Assembly: GCA_009841265.1 (NCBI GenBank)
Contig: VXMB01000014.1
Location: 353,490 to 417,489 of the forward strand
From: Gemmatimonadota bacterium
GTDB taxonomy: Bacteria > JAAXHH01
Reading direction: 5' to 3'
Length of the DNA: 64,000 nt
A program made the position numbers and the translations under genes. Shown piece by piece: positions 12,352 through 37,184 of the stretch. Every line of letters starts with the position of its first letter. Within the stretch, counting starts at the first letter, position 1. The notes beneath the pieces are model-generated. The model was not told the origin of the DNA and did not search any database. It saw only the letters and a list, made by a program, of their open reading frames with translations.

Positions 12352-13758
12352 ATGCATTACCTCATAGTATTTGTGATTGCGTTCGCGCTTTCCGTGATGG
12401 GCTGCGAAGGCAAGACAGGTCCGGCGGGTCCGACCGGCTCGGCGGGTGCCGCAGGTCCGGCGGGTCCGGCGGGTCCCCAGGGATCGACTGGTCCGACTGG
12501 CCCGGCTGGCCCGGCTGGCCCGAAAGGTGACACGGGTGATTCTGGTCCGGCGGGTCCGGCAGGTCCGGCAGGTCCGGCAGGCCCCGAAGGTCCGGCAGGT
12601 CCGGCAGGTCCGCAGGGTGATCCTGGTGACCCGGCCACCATTGATCCAGGCAGCATCGGTAACATCCTGGCGGCTATTCACGAGGTCACGCTGATCCAGG
12701 ATGGCAATGACGATGCCTCCAACACCTTCGCTGGTCCTGGTTTCGCTGAGGGCGATCCGGGTGATGACTGGAATGTTACGCTGGACATCGGTGCAACCAC
12801 TGAGATAGCCGCCACGGCTTCCGCGCAGAACGAGGAGTCCATCCCCGTCGCGTTTGCGTGGGCGTCGGAAGATGCCGAGGTCGCGACGGTCGATGACGGC
12901 GTTATCGAAGGAGTCGGCGCCGGGGAAACCGACATCTCTGTGACCGTTGTGGGACGCGGGATCAAGGTTTCCTTTGAAGTCACGGTCCTTTCGCAGGTCA
13001 AGAGTATCGTTATGGACAGCCCCGCTGACGGGTTCTTCCTCACCAATGGTGAATCTGTAGCCCTTGCAGCCACTGCCTATGACAAAGCTCAAGACGATAA
13101 GACGGCGGAAAGGGACGGCAAAGAGGTTCCAGTCAGTCCATCCTTCATGAGCTCCGACGACAGCGTGATCGAGATCGATGGTTCCGAGGCCAACGCGGTC
13201 GGCGTCGGTTCCGCCAAGATCACCGCGCACTACGGAGACGTTGCGTCCAAGGCGATTACGATCAACGTGACGCCGGGCGGCGATGTTACCCATAAGCTTA
13301 CCTACACCATAATTGCCGCCTCCAAGCGTACCTTCACCAGAATCTATCAGACCGATGGTGAGACGCTGATTTCAAATGATCCGGTTCGCGGCCCGAGTTA
13401 TGATCCTGGGGATGACGCCACCGCGGCTGGTTCCGGCGGCGTGGGCGAGAATGTCGTCTTTACAGTTCAGGTTAGAGAGTACGACTCAGAAGGCAATGCC
13501 CCGATAGACGAAGGCTTCTCCGGCTCCATAACAGCTACAATCCAGCAACAGGGTAGCGTACTTGGCGCCGTCGCCAGCTCGGTTTCTGTAGGCAATCCCA
13601 GCGCCGGCATCGTCCAGGTAACTGTGAATAACGACGGCGATGGTAGCCAAATCACCGGTGAAGGTACGGCGCGCATCATCCTGAGTCTCGACGGAGCGGA
13701 TGACATCGCCCTGCCGGCCGTAATCGTCAAGAAGCAGGTATTGGAGGAACCGAGCTGA
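12352..13758 (+). CDS. collagen-like triple-helix repeat lipoprotein with C-terminal Ig-like (Big_2-type) domains
   Basis: 468 aa. Signal plus lipobox (…ALSVMGC). About 24 uninterrupted Gly-X-Y triplets ([26 protein letters not shown]…). This is followed by beta-rich repeats with Big_2-like signatures ([43 protein letters not shown]). Confidence 0.75.
12418..12636 (+). repeat. 9-nt periodic collagen (GXY) coding repeats
   Basis: Repeated ggtccggc(a/g) units. They encode the G-P-A/G-P-T triplets. Confidence 0.7.
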
Positions 13759-27237: not shown

Positions 27238-28347
27238 ATGTCCGAACAGGTTCAGATCTCACCGGCGGTGGAACCCATCGCGCCGTCTCCCGCGCATCCC
27301 GGACCACCCGCACCGCCCGTACTGCAGCCGGACGCGGGCTATCTCGGATACGACCGCACGTTGTTGCGGCCCATGTCCTTCGCCACGAAGCTTCGCGCCT
27401 TGCTCAAATACGTTTGGGTGCGAATAAAGGGCGGACCGATGGCGGTAAACATGGAGGTGACCTACCTCTGCAACGCCACCTGCGATTTCTGTGATTACTG
27501 GAAGACGAAACGTTCGGGCAAGCTGGGCGACTACGATTACGTGGCGGCGCTTCGGAAGCTGAACCCCCTGACGGTCACCCTGACCGGCGGCGAACCCACG
27601 ATCAACAAGCAACTGCCCGAGGCGGTCAGGCGCATCAAGGAATCCCTGGGATTCGTCTACATCGGCATGGTCACCCACGGATCTCTTCTGACCGTGGAAA
27701 AGGCCATGGCCCTGTGGGATGCCGGCCTGGACCACATCTCGATTTCGTTGAATTACATCGGACGCGAACATGACGAGGAACGGGGCATCGAGGGTCTCTA
27801 CGAGCATATCACCACGCTCGTGCCCCATTTGACGGCCCGGGGGGTCAACGTGATCTTCAACACAGTGATCATGCGGGAGAACCTGGACCACGTCGTACCC
27901 ATAGCGCACCTGGCGCGTACCATGGGCGCGAAGGTTTCCTACAGCTGTTACAGCGACTTCAAGAACGGGAACGAAACCCACCTGGTGGATTCGGCCCACG
28001 CCGAACGGCTGGAGTCCGTGATCGAAGATCTGATTTATCAGAAATCACGCTTAGGGAACATCGTCAGTTCCGCCTGGTACTTGCGCCGCATTCCCGCCTA
28101 TTTCCAGGATTCCCTACCACGGTCCTGCACGGCGGCGGGCAAGTGGCTGGTGCAACTGACCCCCGACGGTGACATAAAGACCTGCGCGGAACTGCCCGTA
28201 TCGTCCGGATACGCCGACTTCAAAAAGGTCTCGAAGAAGATCGACTGCAACCGGTGCTGGTACAGTTGCCGGGGCGAGACGGAATCTTCGTTAAAGATCG
28301 GAAGGTTGCTGGAGGGCCTGGAAAGGGTCTGGAAAGCGGGCGTCTAA
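27238..28347 (+). CDS. radical SAM enzyme (C-terminal Cys-rich, SPASM/twitch-like)
   Basis: 369 aa. CNATCDFCDYW (CxxxCxxC). C-terminal cysteines CTAAG…C…CNRCWYSC. Confidence 0.7.
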   Translation: MSEQVQISPAVEPIAPSPAHPGPPAPPVLQPDAGYLGYDRTLLRPMSFATKLRALLKYVWVRIKGGPMAVNMEVTYLCNATCDFCDYWKTKRSGKLGDYDYVAALRKLNPLTVTLTGGEPTINKQLPEAVRRIKESLGFVYIGMVTHGSLLTVEKAMALWDAGLDHISISLNYIGREHDEERGIEGLYEHITTLVPHLTARGVNVIFNTVIMRENLDHVVPIAHLARTMGAKVSYSCYSDFKNGNETHLVDSAHAERLESVIEDLIYQKSRLGNIVSSAWYLRRIPAYFQDSLPRSCTAAGKWLVQLTPDGDIKTCAELPVSSGYADFKKVSKKIDCNRCWYSCRGETESSLKIGRLLEGLERVWKAGV

Positions 28348-31300
28348 TCGACCGCCGTCAACTCCCTCGACAGTATCCGCCCGGTATGGGAAAGCGAACC
28401 GGCGATTTCCTCGGGCGTCCCCGCGGCAACCACGTGACCGCCCCGGTCACCGCCTTCCGGTCCGAGGTCGACGATCCAGTCGGCCGTCTTGATGATGTCC
28501 AGGTTGTGCTCGATCACCAGCACCGTATTCCCCTTGTCCACCAACCGGTTCAGGACCGTCAACAGCTTGCGGATGTCGTCGAAGTGGAGCCCCGTGGTCG
28601 GCTCGTCGAGCAGGTAGATGGTCTTGCCGGTGCCCGGCCGGGAGAGTTCCTTCGCGAGCTTGACGCGCTGCGCCTCGCCCCCTGACAGCGTGACGGCCGA
28701 CTGGCCGAGCTTGATGTAGTCGAGTCCCACGTCGTACAGCGTCTGGAGCATGCGCCGGATGCGGGGCACGTTCTCGAAATGCTCGAGGGCCTCGGCCACG
28801 GTCATGTCCAGGACATCGGCGATGGTCCTACCCTTGTAGGTCACCTCCAGCGTCTCCTTCATGTAGCGCTTCCCGTCGCAGACCTCGCAGGTCATCCACA
28901 CGTCCGCCAGGAAGTGCATCTCGATCTTGCGTACGCCGAGTCCCTGGCAGGCTTCGCAGCGGCCCGCGGGCACGTTGAAGCTGAACCGCCGGGGTTCGTA
29001 CCCCCGCATGCGGGCCTCCACGGTCCGGGCGAAGAGCTGGCGGATCGGCGCGAAGAGCCCGACGTAGGTGCACGGGTCCGACCGCGGGGAATGGCCGATA
29101 GGCGTCTGGTCGATGTTGATGACCTTGTCCACGAAGCGCAGCCCCTTGATCTCGTCGTGGGGACCGGGATTGACCTGGGCGCGGTGCAGGGTGGAGGCCA
29201 GCACGGGATACAGGATATCGTTGACGAGAGAGCTCTTCCCCGACCCGGACACCCCCGTTACGCAGATGAAGAGGCCGAGGGGCAGCGTCACGTCGATGTT
29301 CTTCAGGTTGTTCTGGCGGGCCCCGATGATGCGAAGCCTGTTGCGGCCCGGCTTGCGGCGGTCCGTGGGCACTTCGATGCGCAGCCGGTCGGCGAGGTAG
29401 CGCCCGGTGAGCGATGTCTCGTGTTCCTTTAGGGTCCCGGGCGCGCCTTCGCCCACGATCCTACCCCCGAACACGCCGGCCCCTGGACCGAAATCCACCA
29501 GGTTGTCGGCATGCTCCAGCGTGTCGCGGTCGTGTTCGACCATGATGAGGGTATTGCCGAGATCGCGCAGGTTCTCCAGGGCCTCGATCAGCCGGAGGTT
29601 ATCCCGCGGGTGGAGTCCGATCGTGGGTTCGTCCAGCACGTAGAGCACGCCGGTCAGTCCCGATCCGATCTGGCTGGCCAGGCGTATCCGCTGCGCCTCG
29701 CCGCCCGAAAGCGTGGGCGCACGGCGGTCGAGCGTCAGGTATTCCAGCCCCACGTCCAGCAGGAAGCGCACGCGGTTACGGATTTCCGTCAACACCTCGC
29801 CCGCGACTTCACGCTGGGAAGTGGAGAGTTCCAGCTTCTCGATGAAGTCCATGGCGCGGTCGACGGGAAGGGCGCAGAGCCCGGCAATGGACACGCCGTC
29901 GATCAGCACGGAGAGGCTCTCGGGCCTGAGGCGCCCGCCCTCACAGGCCGGACAGGGCGTCGGTTGCAACATACGGGCCAGTTCAGGGAAGCGGTTCGCG
30001 TACCGGGCGACCAGTTCCACCGTCGGGAAGATGCCCCGGAACTGGAAGGACAGGCCGGGTACCCGCTGATCGTCCACCCACTGGTCGCTTCCATAGAGTA
30101 ACACCTGGAGCTGTTCCGGTGACAAGGCGTCGACCGGCGTCTTGAGGGTAAACCCATGCGAGGACCCCACCTGTTCCAGCAGGTCGAGCAGGGACCGCTC
30201 GCCCATGGCACTTTCACCGGCTGCGCCTTCACCCCAGATCGCGTCCGCGGCTTCACGCACCGGTTTCGCGCGATGGGGTATCAACAGGTCGAGATCGATC
30301 CCGGGCTGGGTACCGAGTCCCTCGCATTCGGGGCACATGCCCGACCGGTGGTTGAAAGAGAAGCTCTGGGGCGTGGGTTCGTCGTAGCTGTTCCCACAGG
30401 ACGGACAGGAATAGTACCGGCTGAAACGGATGTCGCGGGGTCCGCCGGCATCCGGCTCCTCCACCTCGGCGATCAGCAACCCTCCCGACAGTTCCAGGGC
30501 CGTCTCCACCGAGTCGGCCAGGCGCTGGCGCACGTCGCCCTGCATGACGATCCGGTCCACCACAACGCACAACTCGTGACGCCGTCGGCGGTCGATCTCT
30601 ATGTCCTCTTCGAGCCGCCGCAATTCGCCGTCGATGCGCACCCGGATGAACCCATTCCGGCGGGCCCGGTCCAGGAGGACCTCATACCCCTCGGCGCCTT
30701 CGGGTTCCAGCGGGGCGTGGAGCGTGGCGCGGGTCCGGTCCGGCAGGGTCATGATGCGGTCCACGATCTGGCTGGGCGTCTGCGCGCCGATGGGCACCCG
30801 GCAGGCCGGACAGTGGGGGACGCCCACGAGGGCGTAGAGCCCGCGCAGGTATTCGTAGATCTCCGTGATGGTACCCACCGTGGAACGGGGGTTCCGGCCC
30901 GGTGACTTCTGTTCGATGGAAATGGCCGGGGACAGGCCGACGATGTGGTCCACCTTCGGTTTCTGCATCTGCTGAAGGAACTGCCGCGCATAGGCGGACA
31001 GGGATTCCACGTACCGCCGCTGGCCTTCCGCGTAAATCGTATCGAGGGCCAGGGATGTCTTCCCCGAGCCCGATACGCCCGTGAATACCGTCATCCGGTC
31101 CCGGGGGATCGTCACGGAGAGATCGTTCAGGTTGTGTTCCCGCGCGCCGCGCACGGTGATCTCCCGGATGTGGCCGTCCGCACCGGCGGTCCGGTCGTCT
31201 GCGCCGGCGGTCCGGTACGCAGACCGCGATGATTCCGGAATCGCCGGCGTCGCCGATGGAGGTCCTTGCGACATGCGAGGCCGCAGCGCCTTTGCCAGGA

Positions 31301-34160
31301 TCTGTCCCGTGGACGAACCGGCGACGCCCGCGACGGTCTCCGGCGTTCCCTCGGCGATGACGCGTCCGCCCGCTTCTCCGCCCTCCGGCCCCAGGTCGAT
31401 GATCCAGTCGGCCGTCTTGATCACGTCGATGTTGTGCTCGATGACGACGACGGTGTTGCCTTTGTCCACGAAGGCGTTCAGCACGGCGAGCAGGTGGGTG
31501 ATGTCTTCGAAGTGCAGGCCGGTCGTGGGTTCGTCCAGCACGTACATGGTCCGCCCCGTGCTGCGCTTGCACAGCTCGCGCCCCAGCTTGATGCGCTGCG
31601 CCTCGCCGCCCGACAGCGTAGGCGCGGGCTGGCCCAGCTTGATATACCCCAGGCCCACGTCGTAAAGGGTCCGGAGCACCCGGGCGATGGAAGGAACGTG
31701 TTCGAAGATATCCAGCGCTTCCTGCACGTCCAGCCCGAGCACGTCGGCGATGGAATGCCCCTTGTACTTCACCTCCAGGGTCTCACGGTCGAACCTCCTG
31801 CCCTCGCAGACGGGACAGGAAACCCACATGTCCGCCAGGAAATCCATCTCCACCCGCGTCGCGCCGTTGCCTTCGCAGGCCTCGCACCGGCCGCCCCGCA
31901 CGTTGAAGCTGAACCGGCCCGGCTTGTAGCCGCGCAACCTGGCCTCCGGGGTTTCGGCGAAGAGGGCGCGGATCGCGTCGAAGACCTTCGTATAGGTCGC
32001 CGGATTCGATCTCGGCGTGCGGCCGATGGGCGCCTGGTCGATGTTGATGACCTTGTCCAGGTAACTCACGCCCTTGAGGCCGTCGAACACGCCCGGCTGG
32101 GTGCCGGCCTTGTTCAGCGACCGGGCCAGGGCCGCGTACAGGATATCGTTGATCAGCGAGCTTTTGCCCGAACCGGACACGCCCGTGACGCAGGTGAACC
32201 GGCCCACGGGCAGACGGACGTCCAGGTTCTTCAGGTTGTTCTGACGGGCGCCCAGGATCGTCAGCCAACTGTCGTTAACGCCGCGGCGGGAGACCGGAAC
32301 GGGGATCGACTTCTTCCCGCACAGGTACTGGCCGGTCAGCGAAGCCGTGCTGGCCGCCACGACACCGGGACGGCCCTCGGCCACGATCTCGCCGCCGTTG
32401 ACGCCGGCTCCCGGTCCGAAATCCACGATGTGGTCGGAGGCCCACATGGTCTCTTCATCGTGTTCGACGATGATGACCGTATTGCCCTGGTCCCGCAAAT
32501 GGCCGAGGGTATCCAGCAGCCGCCGGTTGTCCCTGGGATGCAGGCCGATGCTCGGTTCGTCGAGCACGTACATCACGCCGACGAGCCCGCGGCCGATCTG
32601 GCTTGCAAGCCGTATGCGCTGCGCCTCCCCGCCGGAGAGCGTCGGCGCCGTACGTTCCAGCGTCAGGTATTCGAGGCCCACGTTGAGCAGGAAGTCGAGC
32701 CGTGCGACGATCTCCTTGAGCGCTTCGTCGCCGATCTGGCGTTCGGCGTCCGACAGGGACAGTTTCTCGAAGAACGCGCGGATGTCCAGGATGGGCAGCC
32801 GGCACAGCGCGGCGATGGAGAGGCCGCCCAGGGTGACGGACAGCGCTTCGGGCTTCAGGCGTTCGCCGTGGCATTGGTCGCACTCCCCGATGGCCATGTA
32901 CCGTTCGAGTTCGGCCTTGTGCCGCTGGGACTTGAGCGTATGGTACCGCTTTTCGAGGTCGTTTACGACCCCGTTGAACCGGTCCTTGTGCGACCATTCG
33001 CCGCCCTTTCCGTTGCGGAACGTAAAGGTGATGCGCTTGTAGCCCAGTCCGTACAGCACCACCCGCCGCGCCTCTTCGGCCAGGCGCTCCCACGGCGTAT
33101 CCAGGCTGAATCCCACGTGCTGGGCGATCCCTTCGTAAAAGTGCCGTTTCCAGAGATTGGCGATCGTGCCGAGGGGTTCGATCGCCCCTTCGTTGATGGA
33201 CTTCGACGGATCGGGCACGATGAGCCGTGGTTCGATCCGCATCATGGTGCCCAGGCCGTGGCAGTTGGCGCACATGCCCTGCGGACTGTTGAAGGAGAAC
33301 AGCTGCGGCGTCGGTTCCTCGTAACTCAGATCGCACTTGTTACAGGCGTACCGGGTGCTGAAGAGCAGGTCGGAGGTCCGGCCGTCTTCCTCCTGCTGGA
33401 CCATGACGGTACCCTGTCCCAGGTGCAAAGCGCCTTCGACGGCTTCGACCAGCCGGGTGCGGATGTCGTTCCGCATGACGAGGCGGTCCGTCACCACTTC
33501 GATCGTGTGCCGCATGTTGCGGTCGAGGTCGGGATCTTCGGAGAGGTTGACGACCTCGCCGTTCACCCGCGCGCGCAGATAGCCTTGCCGGCGCAGGTCC
33601 TCGAACAGGTCCCGGTACTCGCCGCGGCGCCCCTGGATCACCGGCGCCATCACGAGCATCCGCGTTCCTTCCGGAAGCGCCAGGATCCGGGCGACGATCT
33701 GTTCGAGGGTCTGCGCCCCGATCCGTTCCCCGCACTTCGTGCAGTGCGGCACCCCCACCCGGGCGTAGAGCACGCGCAGGAAGTCGTAGATCTCCGTGAT
33801 CGTCCCGACGGTGGACCGGGGATTCAGCCCGGCGGCTTTCTGTTCGATGGAAATGGCGGGCGCCAGTCCCGTTATCCGGTCGACGTCGGGTTTCTGCATC
33901 TGGCCGAGGAACTGCCTCGCGTAGGCGGAGAGCGATTCGACGTACCGCCGCTGGCCCTCGGCGTAGAGGGTGTCGAAGGCCAGCGAGGACTTGCCGGAAC
34001 CGGATACGCCGGTGAAGCAGATCAGCGCGTCTTTCGGAAGGTCCAGGTTCACGTTCTTCAGGTTGTGAACGCGGGCCCCTTTGATCTGTATGGTCGTTCC
34101 GGCCATGGGAAGAAGGTCGGGTTCCGGGGGTTTGAAAATCGGGTCGTTTCGCGCCGGCAC
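28344..34160 (-). CDS. uvrA: tandem-duplicated UvrA fusion (two complete excinuclease ABC subunit A modules)
   Basis: 1938 aa. Module 1 covers aa about 20-955 and module 2 about 985-1938. Each carries two ABC ATPase cassettes (GVSGSGKSS Walker A x4, LSGGEAQR signature x4), zinc-finger cysteines and a UvrB-binding-like region. The start could instead be M19 (MAGTT…). Confidence 0.85.
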   Translation of the reverse strand: MPARNDPIFKPPEPDLLPMAGTTIQIKGARVHNLKNVNLDLPKDALICFTGVSGSGKSSLAFDTLYAEGQRRYVESLSAYARQFLGQMQKPDVDRITGLAPAISIEQKAAGLNPRSTVGTITEIYDFLRVLYARVGVPHCTKCGERIGAQTLEQIVARILALPEGTRMLVMAPVIQGRRGEYRDLFEDLRRQGYLRARVNGEVVNLSEDPDLDRNMRHTIEVVTDRLVMRNDIRTRLVEAVEGALHLGQGTVMVQQEEDGRTSDLLFSTRYACNKCDLSYEEPTPQLFSFNSPQGMCANCHGLGTMMRIEPRLIVPDPSKSINEGAIEPLGTIANLWKRHFYEGIAQHVGFSLDTPWERLAEEARRVVLYGLGYKRITFTFRNGKGGEWSHKDRFNGVVNDLEKRYHTLKSQRHKAELERYMAIGECDQCHGERLKPEALSVTLGGLSIAALCRLPILDIRAFFEKLSLSDAERQIGDEALKEIVARLDFLLNVGLEYLTLERTAPTLSGGEAQRIRLASQIGRGLVGVMYVLDEPSIGLHPRDNRRLLDTLGHLRDQGNTVIIVEHDEETMWASDHIVDFGPGAGVNGGEIVAEGRPGVVAASTASLTGQYLCGKKSIPVPVSRRGVNDSWLTILGARQNNLKNLDVRLPVGRFTCVTGVSGSGKSSLINDILYAALARSLNKAGTQPGVFDGLKGVSYLDKVINIDQAPIGRTPRSNPATYTKVFDAIRALFAETPEARLRGYKPGRFSFNVRGGRCEACEGNGATRVEMDFLADMWVSCPVCEGRRFDRETLEVKYKGHSIADVLGLDVQEALDIFEHVPSIARVLRTLYDVGLGYIKLGQPAPTLSGGEAQRIKLGRELCKRSTGRTMYVLDEPTTGLHFEDITHLLAVLNAFVDKGNTVVVIEHNIDVIKTADWIIDLGPEGGEAGGRVIAEGTPETVAGVAGSSTGQILAKALRPRMSQGPPSATPAIPESSRSAYRTAGADDRTAGADGHIREITVRGAREHNLNDLSVTIPRDRMTVFTGVSGSGKTSLALDTIYAEGQRRYVESLSAYARQFLQQMQKPKVDHIVGLSPAISIEQKSPGRNPRSTVGTITEIYEYLRGLYALVGVPHCPACRVPIGAQTPSQIVDRIMTLPDRTRATLHAPLEPEGAEGYEVLLDRARRNGFIRVRIDGELRRLEEDIEIDRRRRHELCVVVDRIVMQGDVRQRLADSVETALELSGGLLIAEVEEPDAGGPRDIRFSRYYSCPSCGNSYDEPTPQSFSFNHRSGMCPECEGLGTQPGIDLDLLIPHRAKPVREAADAIWGEGAAGESAMGERSLLDLLEQVGSSHGFTLKTPVDALSPEQLQVLLYGSDQWVDDQRVPGLSFQFRGIFPTVELVARYANRFPELARMLQPTPCPACEGGRLRPESLSVLIDGVSIAGLCALPVDRAMDFIEKLELSTSQREVAGEVLTEIRNRVRFLLDVGLEYLTLDRRAPTLSGGEAQRIRLASQIGSGLTGVLYVLDEPTIGLHPRDNLRLIEALENLRDLGNTLIMVEHDRDTLEHADNLVDFGPGAGVFGGRIVGEGAPGTLKEHETSLTGRYLADRLRIEVPTDRRKPGRNRLRIIGARQNNLKNIDVTLPLGLFICVTGVSGSGKSSLVNDILYPVLASTLHRAQVNPGPHDEIKGLRFVDKVINIDQTPIGHSPRSDPCTYVGLFAPIRQLFARTVEARMRGYEPRRFSFNVPAGRCEACQGLGVRKIEMHFLADVWMTCEVCDGKRYMKETLEVTYKGRTIADVLDMTVAEALEHFENVPRIRRMLQTLYDVGLDYIKLGQSAVTLSGGEAQRVKLAKELSRPGTGKTIYLLDEPTTGLHFDDIRKLLTVLNRLVDKGNTVLVIEHNLDIIKTADWIVDLGPEGGDRGGHVVAAGTPEEIAGSLSHTGRILSRELTAVD

Positions 34161-34363: not shown

Positions 34364-35086
34364 ATGACCAATCCCTGGTACGTCGATTACTTCGGCGAAG
34401 ATTACTACCATTTCGACCACCACGAGGACACGGACCTCGAAGTGGATGGCCTCGCGCGCCTGATCGGGCGTCCGGACGGGAGCGGGGTCCTGGACCTCGG
34501 CTGCGGTTACGGACGGGTGAGCACGCCACTGAGAAAACGCGGATACCGGGTCGTGGGATACGACCTGTCTCCCCCGCTGCTGAAACGTGCCCGCGAGCGG
34601 GACCCCGCGGGGACCTGGGTAAGGGGCGATATGCGCTTCCTGCCTTTTTCCGGGCAGTTCGACACGGTCATCAGCCTGTTCAACACCCTGGGGTACTTCG
34701 AAGAGGAAGACGAGAACTTCAGGGTACTGAAATCGGTCTCCGAGGCACTGCGGCCCGGCGGGCGGCTCGTGTGCCAGCTCGTCAACCGCGACTACCTGGT
34801 CCGCCGGTTCGCCGCCCAGGAAGTCCATCGGCGGGACGGCCGCATCCTGCTCGAAGAGCGCGAATTCGATCCCGTGGCCAACCGAGTCCATACACAATCG
34901 ACCGTGCTCAACGGCGCCGAAAAACGGACGTACGCGTCATCCATACGGGTCTACACGGTGACCGAACTGGACTTGCTCCTGGCCGCCGCGGGCATGACGA
35001 TCGGGGCGGTCCACGGCGGGCTCGATTTCAGGCCGTACGACTGGGATACGAACCAGTTGGTCATCGTCGCCGAACGGACCGGATAG
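34364..35086 (+). CDS. class I SAM-dependent methyltransferase (Methyltransf_11-like)
   Basis: Starts MTNPWYVDYFGEDYY. VLDLGCGYGRVS motif I and VVGYDLS. GGAG RBS 8 nt upstream. Confidence 0.65.
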   Translation: MTNPWYVDYFGEDYYHFDHHEDTDLEVDGLARLIGRPDGSGVLDLGCGYGRVSTPLRKRGYRVVGYDLSPPLLKRARERDPAGTWVRGDMRFLPFSGQFDTVISLFNTLGYFEEEDENFRVLKSVSEALRPGGRLVCQLVNRDYLVRRFAAQEVHRRDGRILLEEREFDPVANRVHTQSTVLNGAEKRTYASSIRVYTVTELDLLLAAAGMTIGAVHGGLDFRPYDWDTNQLVIVAERTG

Positions 35087-35202
35087 CGCCGAACCCGGGC
35101 CGGATCCAGCCCCCAATCTGCTTGACAAAACCCCCCTCCGCCCGTAGGATTCAGTGTCGTTTCATTGCATCCGGGCAAGGATAGAACGCAAAGGAAATTT
35201 AC

Positions 35203-36246
35203 ATGGCATCCGACCCGTTGCGCGTGGGGGTGATCGGGCTTGGATTCGGCCAGTACCACGTCCGCGGCTACCAGGCCTGCCCCGGCGTGGTGGTCGAGAC
35301 CGTCTGCAGCCGGACCGCGGCGACCGCCCAGCGCGTGGCGAAGGACTACGGGATCGCAGAGACCCACACGGATTACCGCGCGGTGCTGGATCGCGGGGAC
35401 ATCGACGCGGTGAGCATCTGCACGCCCGTGAACCTCCACCGGCAGATGGTCATGGAGGCCCTGGAAGCCGGCAAGCACGTGCTGTGCGAGAAGCCGCTCG
35501 GACTGAACGCCGAAGAGGCCAAAGACATGCTCGAAAGCGCCCGCCGGAGCGGCAAGGTCCACATGACCAACTTCGGCTGGCGGTTCAATGGTCCGGCCTT
35601 TCGCATGAAATCCCTGCTCGAAGAGGGGTATATCGGCAGGGTCTACCACCTGAACGCCCGCTACATGATGGGTTACCGGGCGAGTCCCCGGAAGGCGCAC
35701 AGCTGGCGGGAGCGGCGCCTGGAGGCGGGACTCGGCGCCATGGGCGACCTCGGCGTGCACCTGATCGACATGACGCGGTGGTGGGCCGGCGAGTTCGAAC
35801 GGGTGTGCGCGCTGATGCACACGCTCATTCCCGAACGCCGCGCGCCGGACTCCTCCGCCATGCGGGAATCCGAGCTCGAAGACGCCTGCGCCTTCATCGC
35901 CCAGATGCAGGGCGGGGTCCAGGCCGTGTTCCACGTAAGCCGTTGCGCACTGTACACGGACTTCATTCACATCGACATCCACGGGAGCGACGGCGCGCTG
36001 CATTTCCAGTTCGTACGGGACACCATGCAGGCCAGTCTGAAGGGCGGCCAGGGGCTGCGGGGCAACCTCCAGCCGCTGTCCGTACCGTCCCAGCAAGGCG
36101 CGCTGTCTCCGCAGCGGCACTTCGTCGAAGCGATCCGGTCCGGCGTCGAAGCCGATCCGAGTTTCCACGAAGGGTACTGCGTGCAACAGGTCGCCGACGC
36201 CATAACCATCTCGGAGGAGCAGCAGACATGGGTATCCCTTTCCTGA
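35203..36246 (+). CDS. Gfo/Idh/MocA-family NAD(P)-dependent oxidoreductase
   Basis: LRVGVIGLGFGQYH Rossmann fold and the EKPLGLNAEEA motif. Confidence 0.8.
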   Translation: MASDPLRVGVIGLGFGQYHVRGYQACPGVVVETVCSRTAATAQRVAKDYGIAETHTDYRAVLDRGDIDAVSICTPVNLHRQMVMEALEAGKHVLCEKPLGLNAEEAKDMLESARRSGKVHMTNFGWRFNGPAFRMKSLLEEGYIGRVYHLNARYMMGYRASPRKAHSWRERRLEAGLGAMGDLGVHLIDMTRWWAGEFERVCALMHTLIPERRAPDSSAMRESELEDACAFIAQMQGGVQAVFHVSRCALYTDFIHIDIHGSDGALHFQFVRDTMQASLKGGQGLRGNLQPLSVPSQQGALSPQRHFVEAIRSGVEADPSFHEGYCVQQVADAITISEEQQTWVSLS

Positions 36247-37184
36247 CATCGCGGCGGGTTCCGCGACGGGTTCCGCGGCGAACTCGGCCCCGGATTACGA
36301 CCATGCTGATGATCCCCCTGTGCCTCTTCTGGCTCGCCGGCTGCGCCGGACAGGAATCGGAGCCGGAAACCGCGGACGCGGTCCCCGATCAGGCCCAGGT
36401 CATCGCGGAAGAGGTAATGGAGGCCATGGGGGGGCGGGATAACTGGGACGCCACCAGGTACATCCGGTTTTCGTTCTTCGGGTTCCGCACCCACTACTGG
36501 GACAAGCACGACGGTCGGCACCGCCTTTCCTGGACCGACCGCGAAAGCGGGCAGTCCCACGTGATCCTGATGAATCTGAATACGGGGGAAGGGCAGGCGT
36601 TCGTTGACGGCTCGGAAGTCACGGACATGGAGGCGCAGAACCAATCCCTGGAGCGTGCCCGGGGCGCATGGATAAACGACACCTACTGGCTGCTGATGCC
36701 CTACAAGCTGCAGGACCCGGGTGTTGACCTGGCCTACGATGGCGAGGAAGTCGTAGACGGCACCGTCTACGACAAGCTGCATCTCAGTTTCAATGAGGTG
36801 GGGAATACACCGGGCGACGAGTACTGGGCCTATATCAACCGGGAAACCCGTCTCATGGACAAATGGGTCTATCTCCTGCAGTTGCGGGAGGGCCAGGACG
36901 AGCGAAGCCGGGGCGAATGGAAGTGGAACGACTGGCGCAGCCATGGCGACATCCTGTTGTCCGCGGAACGCGAGCGGATGGACGGCCAGAAGCGGTCCCA
37001 CGAAGACCTGGCGGTGCTCGAGTTCGTAGACGATCGGGTATTTACGTCGCCCGACCCGGTATCTCCCGAGATGGTACGGGAGCGAACCGGGCAGCCTGGT
37101 CCCGGCGCGTCCGAGTCGTCCGGCGCGTCCGAGTCAACCGGAGTTCCGAGCGCCACCACACAGCCTGCCGAAGGGTCGGAGTGA
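36228..37184 (+). CDS. putative lipoprotein of unknown function
   Basis: Signal plus lipobox …MLMIPLCLFWLAGCAG. The start is ambiguous between ATG 36228 and ATG 36303. It is the tail of the artefactual 676-aa ORF in the track. Confidence 0.45.
   Translation: MGIPFLTSRRVPRRVPRRTRPRITTMLMIPLCLFWLAGCAGQESEPETADAVPDQAQVIAEEVMEAMGGRDNWDATRYIRFSFFGFRTHYWDKHDGRHRLSWTDRESGQSHVILMNLNTGEGQAFVDGSEVTDMEAQNQSLERARGAWINDTYWLLMPYKLQDPGVDLAYDGEEVVDGTVYDKLHLSFNEVGNTPGDEYWAYINRETRLMDKWVYLLQLREGQDERSRGEWKWNDWRSHGDILLSAERERMDGQKRSHEDLAVLEFVDDRVFTSPDPVSPEMVRERTGQPGPGASESSGASESTGVPSATTQPAEGSE

Follow-up and report, generated by a model that had tools for sequence, protein, structure and literature searches.

A double-length UvrA with two predicted class I modules: a putative single-chain pseudo-dimer from a distinct family of fused UvrAs

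The protomers of UvrA meet through ATP-binding domain I, where the contacting residue pairs are R54-L507, Y55-Y55, Y55-P83/A84/I85, S58-I85, F66-F66, G80-M508, L81-L507 and P83-L507/V510; the residues Y62, Q65 and F66 make up the DNA 'wedge' (PMC12796330). The domain set of a class I protomer comprises ATP-binding domains I and II, signature domains I and II, three zinc modules, a UvrB-binding domain and an insertion domain. Class II UvrAs lack the UvrB-binding domain and stand outside classical nucleotide excision repair (NER) (PMC5128194; bioRxiv 10.1101/2022.02.02.478902). A double-length gene has been described in Chlamydia trachomatis, where uvrA (CT333) spans 5,361 bp and encodes 1,786 aa (PMC6686042), and NCBIfam includes a curated 1809-position model of double-length UvrA, NF001885. 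We found no discussion of the fused architecture itself in the open-access literature. It is an open problem how UvrA2UvrB2, a symmetric complex, gives rise to a pre-incision complex that is asymmetric and has a single UvrB, placed on the damaged strand (PMC11985968).

Here we analyze a fused uvrA encoded in a 64-kb stretch of DNA, referred to below as the window. On the minus strand, one unbroken open reading frame (ORF) of 1938 codons runs from a GTG to the stop codon (Table 1). A prior reading of the window (the sequence-only reading) had reported this frame as a 1938-aa polypeptide; the single uninterrupted frame stands, while the length should be revised to 1920 aa, as translation probably starts at the ATG of codon 19 (window position 34106) and not at the GTG. 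We prefer the ATG because nearly all homologues have their first module starting at residue 3, and because GenBank entries that use this ATG give an identical 1920-aa product. Read from M19, the window ORF is 100% identical to the protein P0282, which corresponds to MXX03076.1/MYD26957.1 and is named "excinuclease ABC subunit UvrA [Gemmatimonadetes bacterium]". The same sequence had been public before under the name UvrA, and its annotation is unchanged. The taxonomic labels of close relatives conflict: the locus L003 (JAJEAN010000001.1) and the genome records with 90-94% identical proteins are labeled Candidatus Latescibacterota, while the identical (MXX03076.1) and a 96%-identical (MCY3714517.1) GenBank protein are labeled Gemmatimonadetes/Gemmatimonadota.

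Table 1. Features of the fused uvrA. Positions are those of the window; residues and Walker A lysines follow the 1938-aa numbering, which is 18 higher than that of the 1920-aa protein.
Feature	Position	Strand	Residues	Remarks
Longest ORF, GTG to stop	28344..34160	-		1938 codons; extent given in the sequence-only reading
Likeliest CDS, ATG (codon 19) to stop	28344..34106	-		1920 aa; matches GenBank MXX03076.1/MYD26957.1
N module, complete class I UvrA unit	31281..34097	-	22-960	Walker A lysines K57, K666
N-module UvrB-binding domain	33327..33743	-	140-278	Pfam UvrA_inter, profile mapping
N-module insertion (DNA-binding) domain	32904..33236	-	309-419	Pfam UvrA_DNA-bind
Inter-module linker	31170..31280	-	961-997	37 residues; Pro/Ser/Ala-rich, not conserved, relaxed selection
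21-nt tandem repeat in linker (RTAGADD/RTAGADG)	31173..31216	-		copy number varies between close strains
C module, second complete class I UvrA unit	28356..31169	-	998-1935	Walker A lysines K1034, K1642
C-module UvrB-binding domain	30390..30812	-	1117-1257	family-wide C-specific G160E (E. coli numbering)
C-module insertion domain	29976..30299	-	1288-1395	most divergent region; canonical Arg pair lost

The borders of the modules and the linker were drawn from profile mapping. Pfam detects UvrA_inter (PF17760, UvrB-binding) and UvrA_DNA-bind (PF17755, insertion domain) twice each, and the NCBIfam models NF001503 (2742.9 bits against a cut-off of 1147) and TIGR00630 (2647.7 bits against 729.8) both match two stretches of the chain. 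Together with the profile mapping, these results bear out the earlier proposal that two complete UvrA units are fused head to tail. Walker A, the ABC signature, Walker B and the H-loop are each present in four intact copies at the expected positions, and 12 CxxC motifs form three Cys4 zinc modules per half, with positions matching between the halves. As had been proposed, each half therefore contains both ATPase cassettes, the zinc modules and a UvrB-binding region, and neither half lacks ATPase motifs. By BLASTP, the N and C halves share 56% identity across 950 aligned columns. The peptides that had been quoted to illustrate their clear divergence, CTKCGERIGAQT and CPACRVPIGAQT, are both present. 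The insertion domain is the sole strongly divergent stretch, with the C copy only 29% identical to the N copy.

Both halves align end to end with the class I structure 9gxk (1215 and 1113 bits), and both match the further class I structures 2r6f, 3zqj and 3pih over their full length. The class II structures 2vf7 and 7sh1 match either half more weakly than the class I structures do. We also considered the window protein as a class II UvrA and rejected this assignment on the basis of the UvrB-binding domain in both modules. Thus, by every sequence criterion tested, each module is classed as a class I UvrA. What the whole chain does not share with class I is the single ~940-aa subunit of a homodimer: the chain is 1920 aa long and holds two non-identical modules.

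The linker contains a 21-nt direct repeat encoding RTAGADD/RTAGADG, as had been noticed. Its units, CGGACCGCCGGCGCAGACGAC and CGGACCGCCGGTGCGGACGGC, are identical at 18/21 positions, and TRF reports a period of 21, 2.0 copies and 90% matches. The unit is confined to the lineage of the window protein. When its length is counted between the TGQILAK and HIRE motifs, both conserved, the linker spans 39 to 70 residues in strains that are at least 90% identical (P0001, P0282-P0295); it holds about 1-5 units resembling (R)TAGAD(D/G) and stays in frame despite this variation. Restriction to a single lineage and a copy number that differs among such close strains argue against a conserved role. The repeat is instead a strain-variable element within a flexible, non-conserved tether. 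Across the fused family, linker length has a median of 22, a sharp mode at 20 and a minimum of 17 residues, and none of the fused UvrAs of any type has a linker shorter than 10 residues.

A repeat at this position could in principle cause assembly errors, and we asked whether two adjacent uvrA genes had been wrongly joined, or a stop codon or frameshift in the linker missed. More than 130 independent assemblies, drawn from different projects and phyla and including contigs of 0.7-8 Mb, carry the two-module gene as one continuous ORF, which effectively excludes a misassembly or frameshift. In addition, the linker keeps its frame at every length, and the identical protein was called independently in GenBank. 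A 987-aa cluster member (P0289) was considered as a split gene and rejected, as its call starts at an internal Met of the linker. An artefact is therefore vanishingly unlikely.

The sequence-only reading had implied that such a protein is rare, and here it does not hold. In a search with the full protein, 119 of the 120 clusters among the matches listed are 1,880-2,519 aa long with two complete modules; the one remaining cluster is a fragment with the same two-module architecture, and 15 fetched genome loci also carry it. A scan of species-representative genomes recovered the fused gene at 90-94% identity in metagenome-assembled genomes (MAGs) labeled Candidatus Latescibacterota, at 70% in Zixibacteria, and at ~50-57% in Pirellulaceae, Gemmataceae, Planctomycetaceae, Poribacteria and one Verrucomicrobia MAG, with some of the contigs megabase-sized. 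The fusion is also carried by the complete genome OY843748.1 (3.94 Mb), as a 90% identical protein. We also ran an exhaustive search with half A as the query over 1.84 billion 50%-identity representatives and inspected the best 150. Two complete UvrA modules are carried by 116 of these 150, and only 4 are complete single-module proteins. Single-chain UvrAs are widespread and already annotated, and the window gene is no one-off. The family of the window protein amounts to 136 fused proteins, from MAGs labeled Latescibacterota or Gemmatimonadota and from Zixibacteria, Planctomycetota and Poribacteria, and is a distinct, uncharacterised group of fused UvrAs.

Two side observations were made among these homologues. 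Many family members (P0121, P0026, P0039 and about 20 others, labeled Planctomycetota or Armatimonadota; L008-L013) carry an extra C-terminal extension, mostly of about 340-430 aa and in three cases of about 205-215 aa, with the internal repeat PWExDGRxWH...; this extension has no Pfam match. For L040 (Christensenella sp. UBA6880), a single UvrA ORF of 941 aa exceeded the profile threshold within a tblastn match of 7.7 kb; another UvrA-like or ABC gene, more distantly related, may follow directly downstream.

To place each half in a phylogeny, as the sequence-only reading had suggested, the N and C modules of 251 fused proteins were treated as separate sequences and aligned to a single profile along with 67 single UvrAs, of which 66 came from the searches and the other was E. 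coli UvrA. A set of 675 core columns was used for neighbor-joining on corrected distances with 100 bootstraps. The N module of the window protein falls in a clade of 136 N modules (bootstrap 80), and its C module falls in another clade of 136 C modules (bootstrap 72) drawn from the identical set of proteins. The split of these N and C clades from the 66 canonical UvrAs has a moderate bootstrap of 64, obtained by neighbor-joining and not by maximum likelihood. Within the family, N-N and C-C distances are correlated with r = 0.95. Because the N and C clades mirror each other and their distances run in parallel, the family is traced to a single ancient tandem duplication and fusion followed by co-divergence; a series of recent duplications does not fit this pattern. 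Evolution is about 14% faster in the C module, whose mean core distance is 0.340 as compared to 0.299 for N. Other fused families form mirrored N/C clade pairs of their own (44/43, 30/31, 18/16 and more) and are equidistant from the N modules of the window family, its C modules and canonical UvrAs. The single-module protein P0244, which groups weakly with the C clade, was considered as split-gene (Rosetta-stone) evidence and rejected: only AT-rich non-coding DNA lies upstream of it, and it is an ordinary single gene.

To measure constraint on each module, dN/dS was computed against five relatives. Values were 0.10-0.14 for the whole N module and 0.09-0.14 for the C module, 0.12-0.20 and 0.10-0.18 for the respective UvrB-binding domains, 0.08-0.25 and 0.12-0.39 for the insertion domains, and 0.3-0.7 for the linker. 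Both modules are under strong purifying selection (dN/dS ~0.1), and neither is decaying. Domain by domain, the conservation of both modules is similar to that of canonical UvrAs among themselves. Mean identity is lower in C than in N for the UvrB-binding domain (0.46 vs 0.52), the insertion domain (0.33 vs 0.38) and the signature II/Zn3 region (0.64 vs 0.72). The insertion domain of the C module, although divergent, is nevertheless conserved inside the family.

To analyze the dimer interface, we transferred the Ct-UvrA numbering of PMC12796330 to the profile through the 9gxk alignment; the wedge positions N270/N271 were left out because they do not fit cleanly to profile columns. Family-wide, both module types keep R54, Y55, S58, Y62, A63, Q65, F66, L67, G80, L81, P83, L507 and V510. 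Three contact positions differ between the modules: S82 is S or A in N and S in C, A84 is T, A or S in N and A in C, and M508 is V in N and T in C. At D74, which adjoins the contact positions, N has D and C has K. Because both modules are constrained and the listed interface and wedge residues are kept in both, the best reading is a covalent pseudo-dimer, as the sequence-only reading had proposed, and the linker floor of ~17 and mode of 20 fit it as well. We consider it fairly probable that the product is a working single-chain class I UvrA of this kind. We infer the intramolecular pairing of N with C, the function in NER and the stoichiometry with UvrB.

The same interface conservation is equally compatible with pairing between chains, either N:N and C:C or N:C in trans, which would build a four-module assembly or chains, unlike UvrA2; conservation in both modules does not say which module pairs with which. 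Some linkers in the family are also just 17-20 residues long. However, S82, A84, M508 and the change of D74 to K are fixed differently in the two modules, which is expected for a heterotypic N:C interface and less so for N:N plus C:C. The sharp mode at 20 residues and the hard floor suggest a defined intramolecular span. As a general principle, the high local concentration of tethered domains strongly favors intramolecular pairing. Pairing between chains is thus unlikely, and we prefer the single-chain pseudo-dimer.

At the origin of the proposed pseudo-dimer, an ancestral uvrA was duplicated in tandem and the copies fused, and the fusion has been inherited intact across several phyla. The N and C modules would fold as ordinary UvrA protomers and would pair through the canonical interface of ATP-binding domain I, with a flexible stretch of ~20-40 residues tethering them. 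A single chain of 212 kDa would then replace the UvrA2 homodimer, scanning DNA and sensing distortion with four ATPase sites, and would recruit UvrB through its UvrB-binding domains before the hand-off to UvrB and UvrC. Asymmetry between the modules is mild in the window family; in other fused families it extends to the loss of one insertion domain or one UvrB-binding domain. The modules can evolve asymmetrically because the 'protomers' are now separate sequences.

Such asymmetry is visible at near-invariant sites. Canonical UvrA has 338 columns with a conservation of at least 90%; 296 of these are kept in N modules and 282 in C modules. Changes fixed family-wide in C alone (E. coli numbering), at sites kept in N modules and in canonical UvrAs, include D72K, D74E, K459 and G725, together with K159/G160E in the UvrB-binding domain. 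Further C-only changes are fixed in the insertion domain (R381/R382) and in signature domain II (R691/T692S), a domain described as contacting UvrB and DNA. These C-module changes could make the two UvrB sites non-equivalent. The sequence-only reading had suggested that one half might be specialized for damage sensing and the other for UvrB loading. This division is not supported for the window protein: both modules keep the UvrB-binding and insertion domains under purifying selection, and they diverge only by a small set of fixed module-specific substitutions. Judged from these sites, specialization of the modules in the window family appears subtle.

Larger asymmetries are found elsewhere. 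Both modules are complete in 172 of the 251 fused proteins. The insertion domain is missing from module 2 in 39 (including two Poribacteria members of the window family) and from module 1 in 5, and the UvrB-binding domain is missing from module 2 in 5 and from module 1 in 1; another 26 are class II-type doubles, and 3 show other combinations. In the Candidatus Poribacteria loci L016 and L017, module 2 has no insertion domain (profile positions about 290-406), in contrast to module 1. Asymmetric domain loss is recurrent among fused UvrAs. Because a homodimer cannot lose a domain from one protomer alone, fusion opens the way to such asymmetry. Judging from which losses are tolerated, a single insertion domain, and at times a single UvrB-binding domain, may suffice.

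A bolder reading is that the protein is an obligately asymmetric sensor, in which a single insertion domain serves as the lesion-recognition domain and UvrB is loaded preferentially on one side. It would be based on G160E and the loss of the insertion-domain Arg pair in the C module, and on the R691/T692 changes in signature domain II. We regard this proposal as doubtful. If true, the fusion would hard-wire the single UvrB and the choice of strand, which are otherwise generated dynamically by symmetric UvrA2UvrB2, and the recurrent one-sided loss of an insertion or UvrB-binding domain in other fused families would be the final stage of that trend.

The neighborhood and the genome bear on whether the fused protein is the main NER damage sensor. 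Additional UvrA paralogues occur in many bacteria (PMC5128194; bioRxiv 10.1101/2022.02.02.478902), and the fused protein might be a specialized paralogue beside a canonical uvrA. At least one Planctomycetia MAG contig (L065) does carry a canonical-length UvrA. In the window, tblastn found no other UvrA-like sequence, in agreement with the earlier statement that no canonical-length uvrA lies there. Neither uvrB nor uvrC is present among the large ORFs scanned in the 64-kb window, so that the fused uvrA shows no linkage to either gene there, a point against the preferred reading. The immediate neighbors are a radical SAM enzyme, a phosphodiesterase and a methyltransferase, and the neighboring genes form no biosynthetic or resistance cluster. 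Moreover, the UvrB-binding domain, absent from class II proteins, is present in both modules; their scores lie far above the cut-offs of the UvrA equivalogs, and D. radiodurans UvrA2 and Ecm16 are more distant from them than the class I structures are. To our knowledge, the double-length uvrA of C. trachomatis is its only uvrA. Taken together, a role as a specialized paralogue is quite improbable, and we retain the single-chain pseudo-dimer acting in NER as the preferred reading.

Elsewhere in the window, a 468-aa ORF at 12352..13758 (+) with collagen triple-helix repeats (Pfam PF01391) encodes a bacterial collagen-like protein and sits in the lowest-GC stretch (0.574). Just upstream of uvrA, two long candidate ORFs overlap on opposite strands, one at 34951..36249 (-) of 432 aa and one at 35154..37184 (+) of 676 aa; neither matches Pfam.

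A natural single-chain UvrA would allow the ATPase sites, the insertion domain and the UvrB-binding domain to be mutated in one 'protomer' at a time, which is hard with a homodimer. Its value lies in being a natural "linked dimer" for studying asymmetry in the hand-off from UvrA to UvrB. The gene itself is routine and annotated, and the commonness and age of single-chain UvrAs might be new to repair specialists. The comparative picture, of one ancient fusion in the window family and repeated one-sided domain loss in other families, is more useful than the annotation.

How, then, does the window protein compare with known UvrA systems? Each of its modules has the same full domain set as canonical class I UvrA (E. 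coli; 2R6F, 3PIH, 3ZQJ, 9GXK). It differs in having two modules per chain in place of the canonical homodimer of ~940-aa subunits, and in a C module changed at the near-invariant sites D72K, G160E, R381/R382 and R691/T692 (E. coli numbering). The chlamydial double UvrA (CT333; NF001885/PRK00635) is likewise a tandem two-module protein and is named simply UvrA (PMC6686042). It is a separate lineage, as the window protein scores 1389.3 bits against the NF001885 cut-off of 3054. Membership in the chlamydial family was accordingly rejected for the window protein, and five representatives of ~1,800 aa also fall under this cut-off. In the examined fused proteins of the ~1,780-1,830 aa size class, among which the chlamydial sequence is not included, module 2 lacks the insertion domain, whereas the window protein has both.

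Class II UvrAs (D. radiodurans UvrA2, DrrC, Ecm16) belong to the same superfamily, and the window protein is set apart from them by the UvrB-binding domain in both of its modules. Tandem doubles of class II type, in which neither module has a UvrB-binding domain, also exist: P0157, P0178, P0180 and about 25 other representatives, of about 1,590-1,680 aa, form mirrored N/C clades of their own. Outside the UvrA superfamily, full-length ABC transporters are fused half-transporters that act as pseudo-symmetric heterodimers. The fused UvrA may follow the same logic, in which a homodimeric ABC ATPase becomes one chain and its halves diverge. UvrA differs from these transporters in being soluble and DNA-binding, and in having two nucleotide-binding domains in each protomer, so that fusion gives four ATPase sites per chain.
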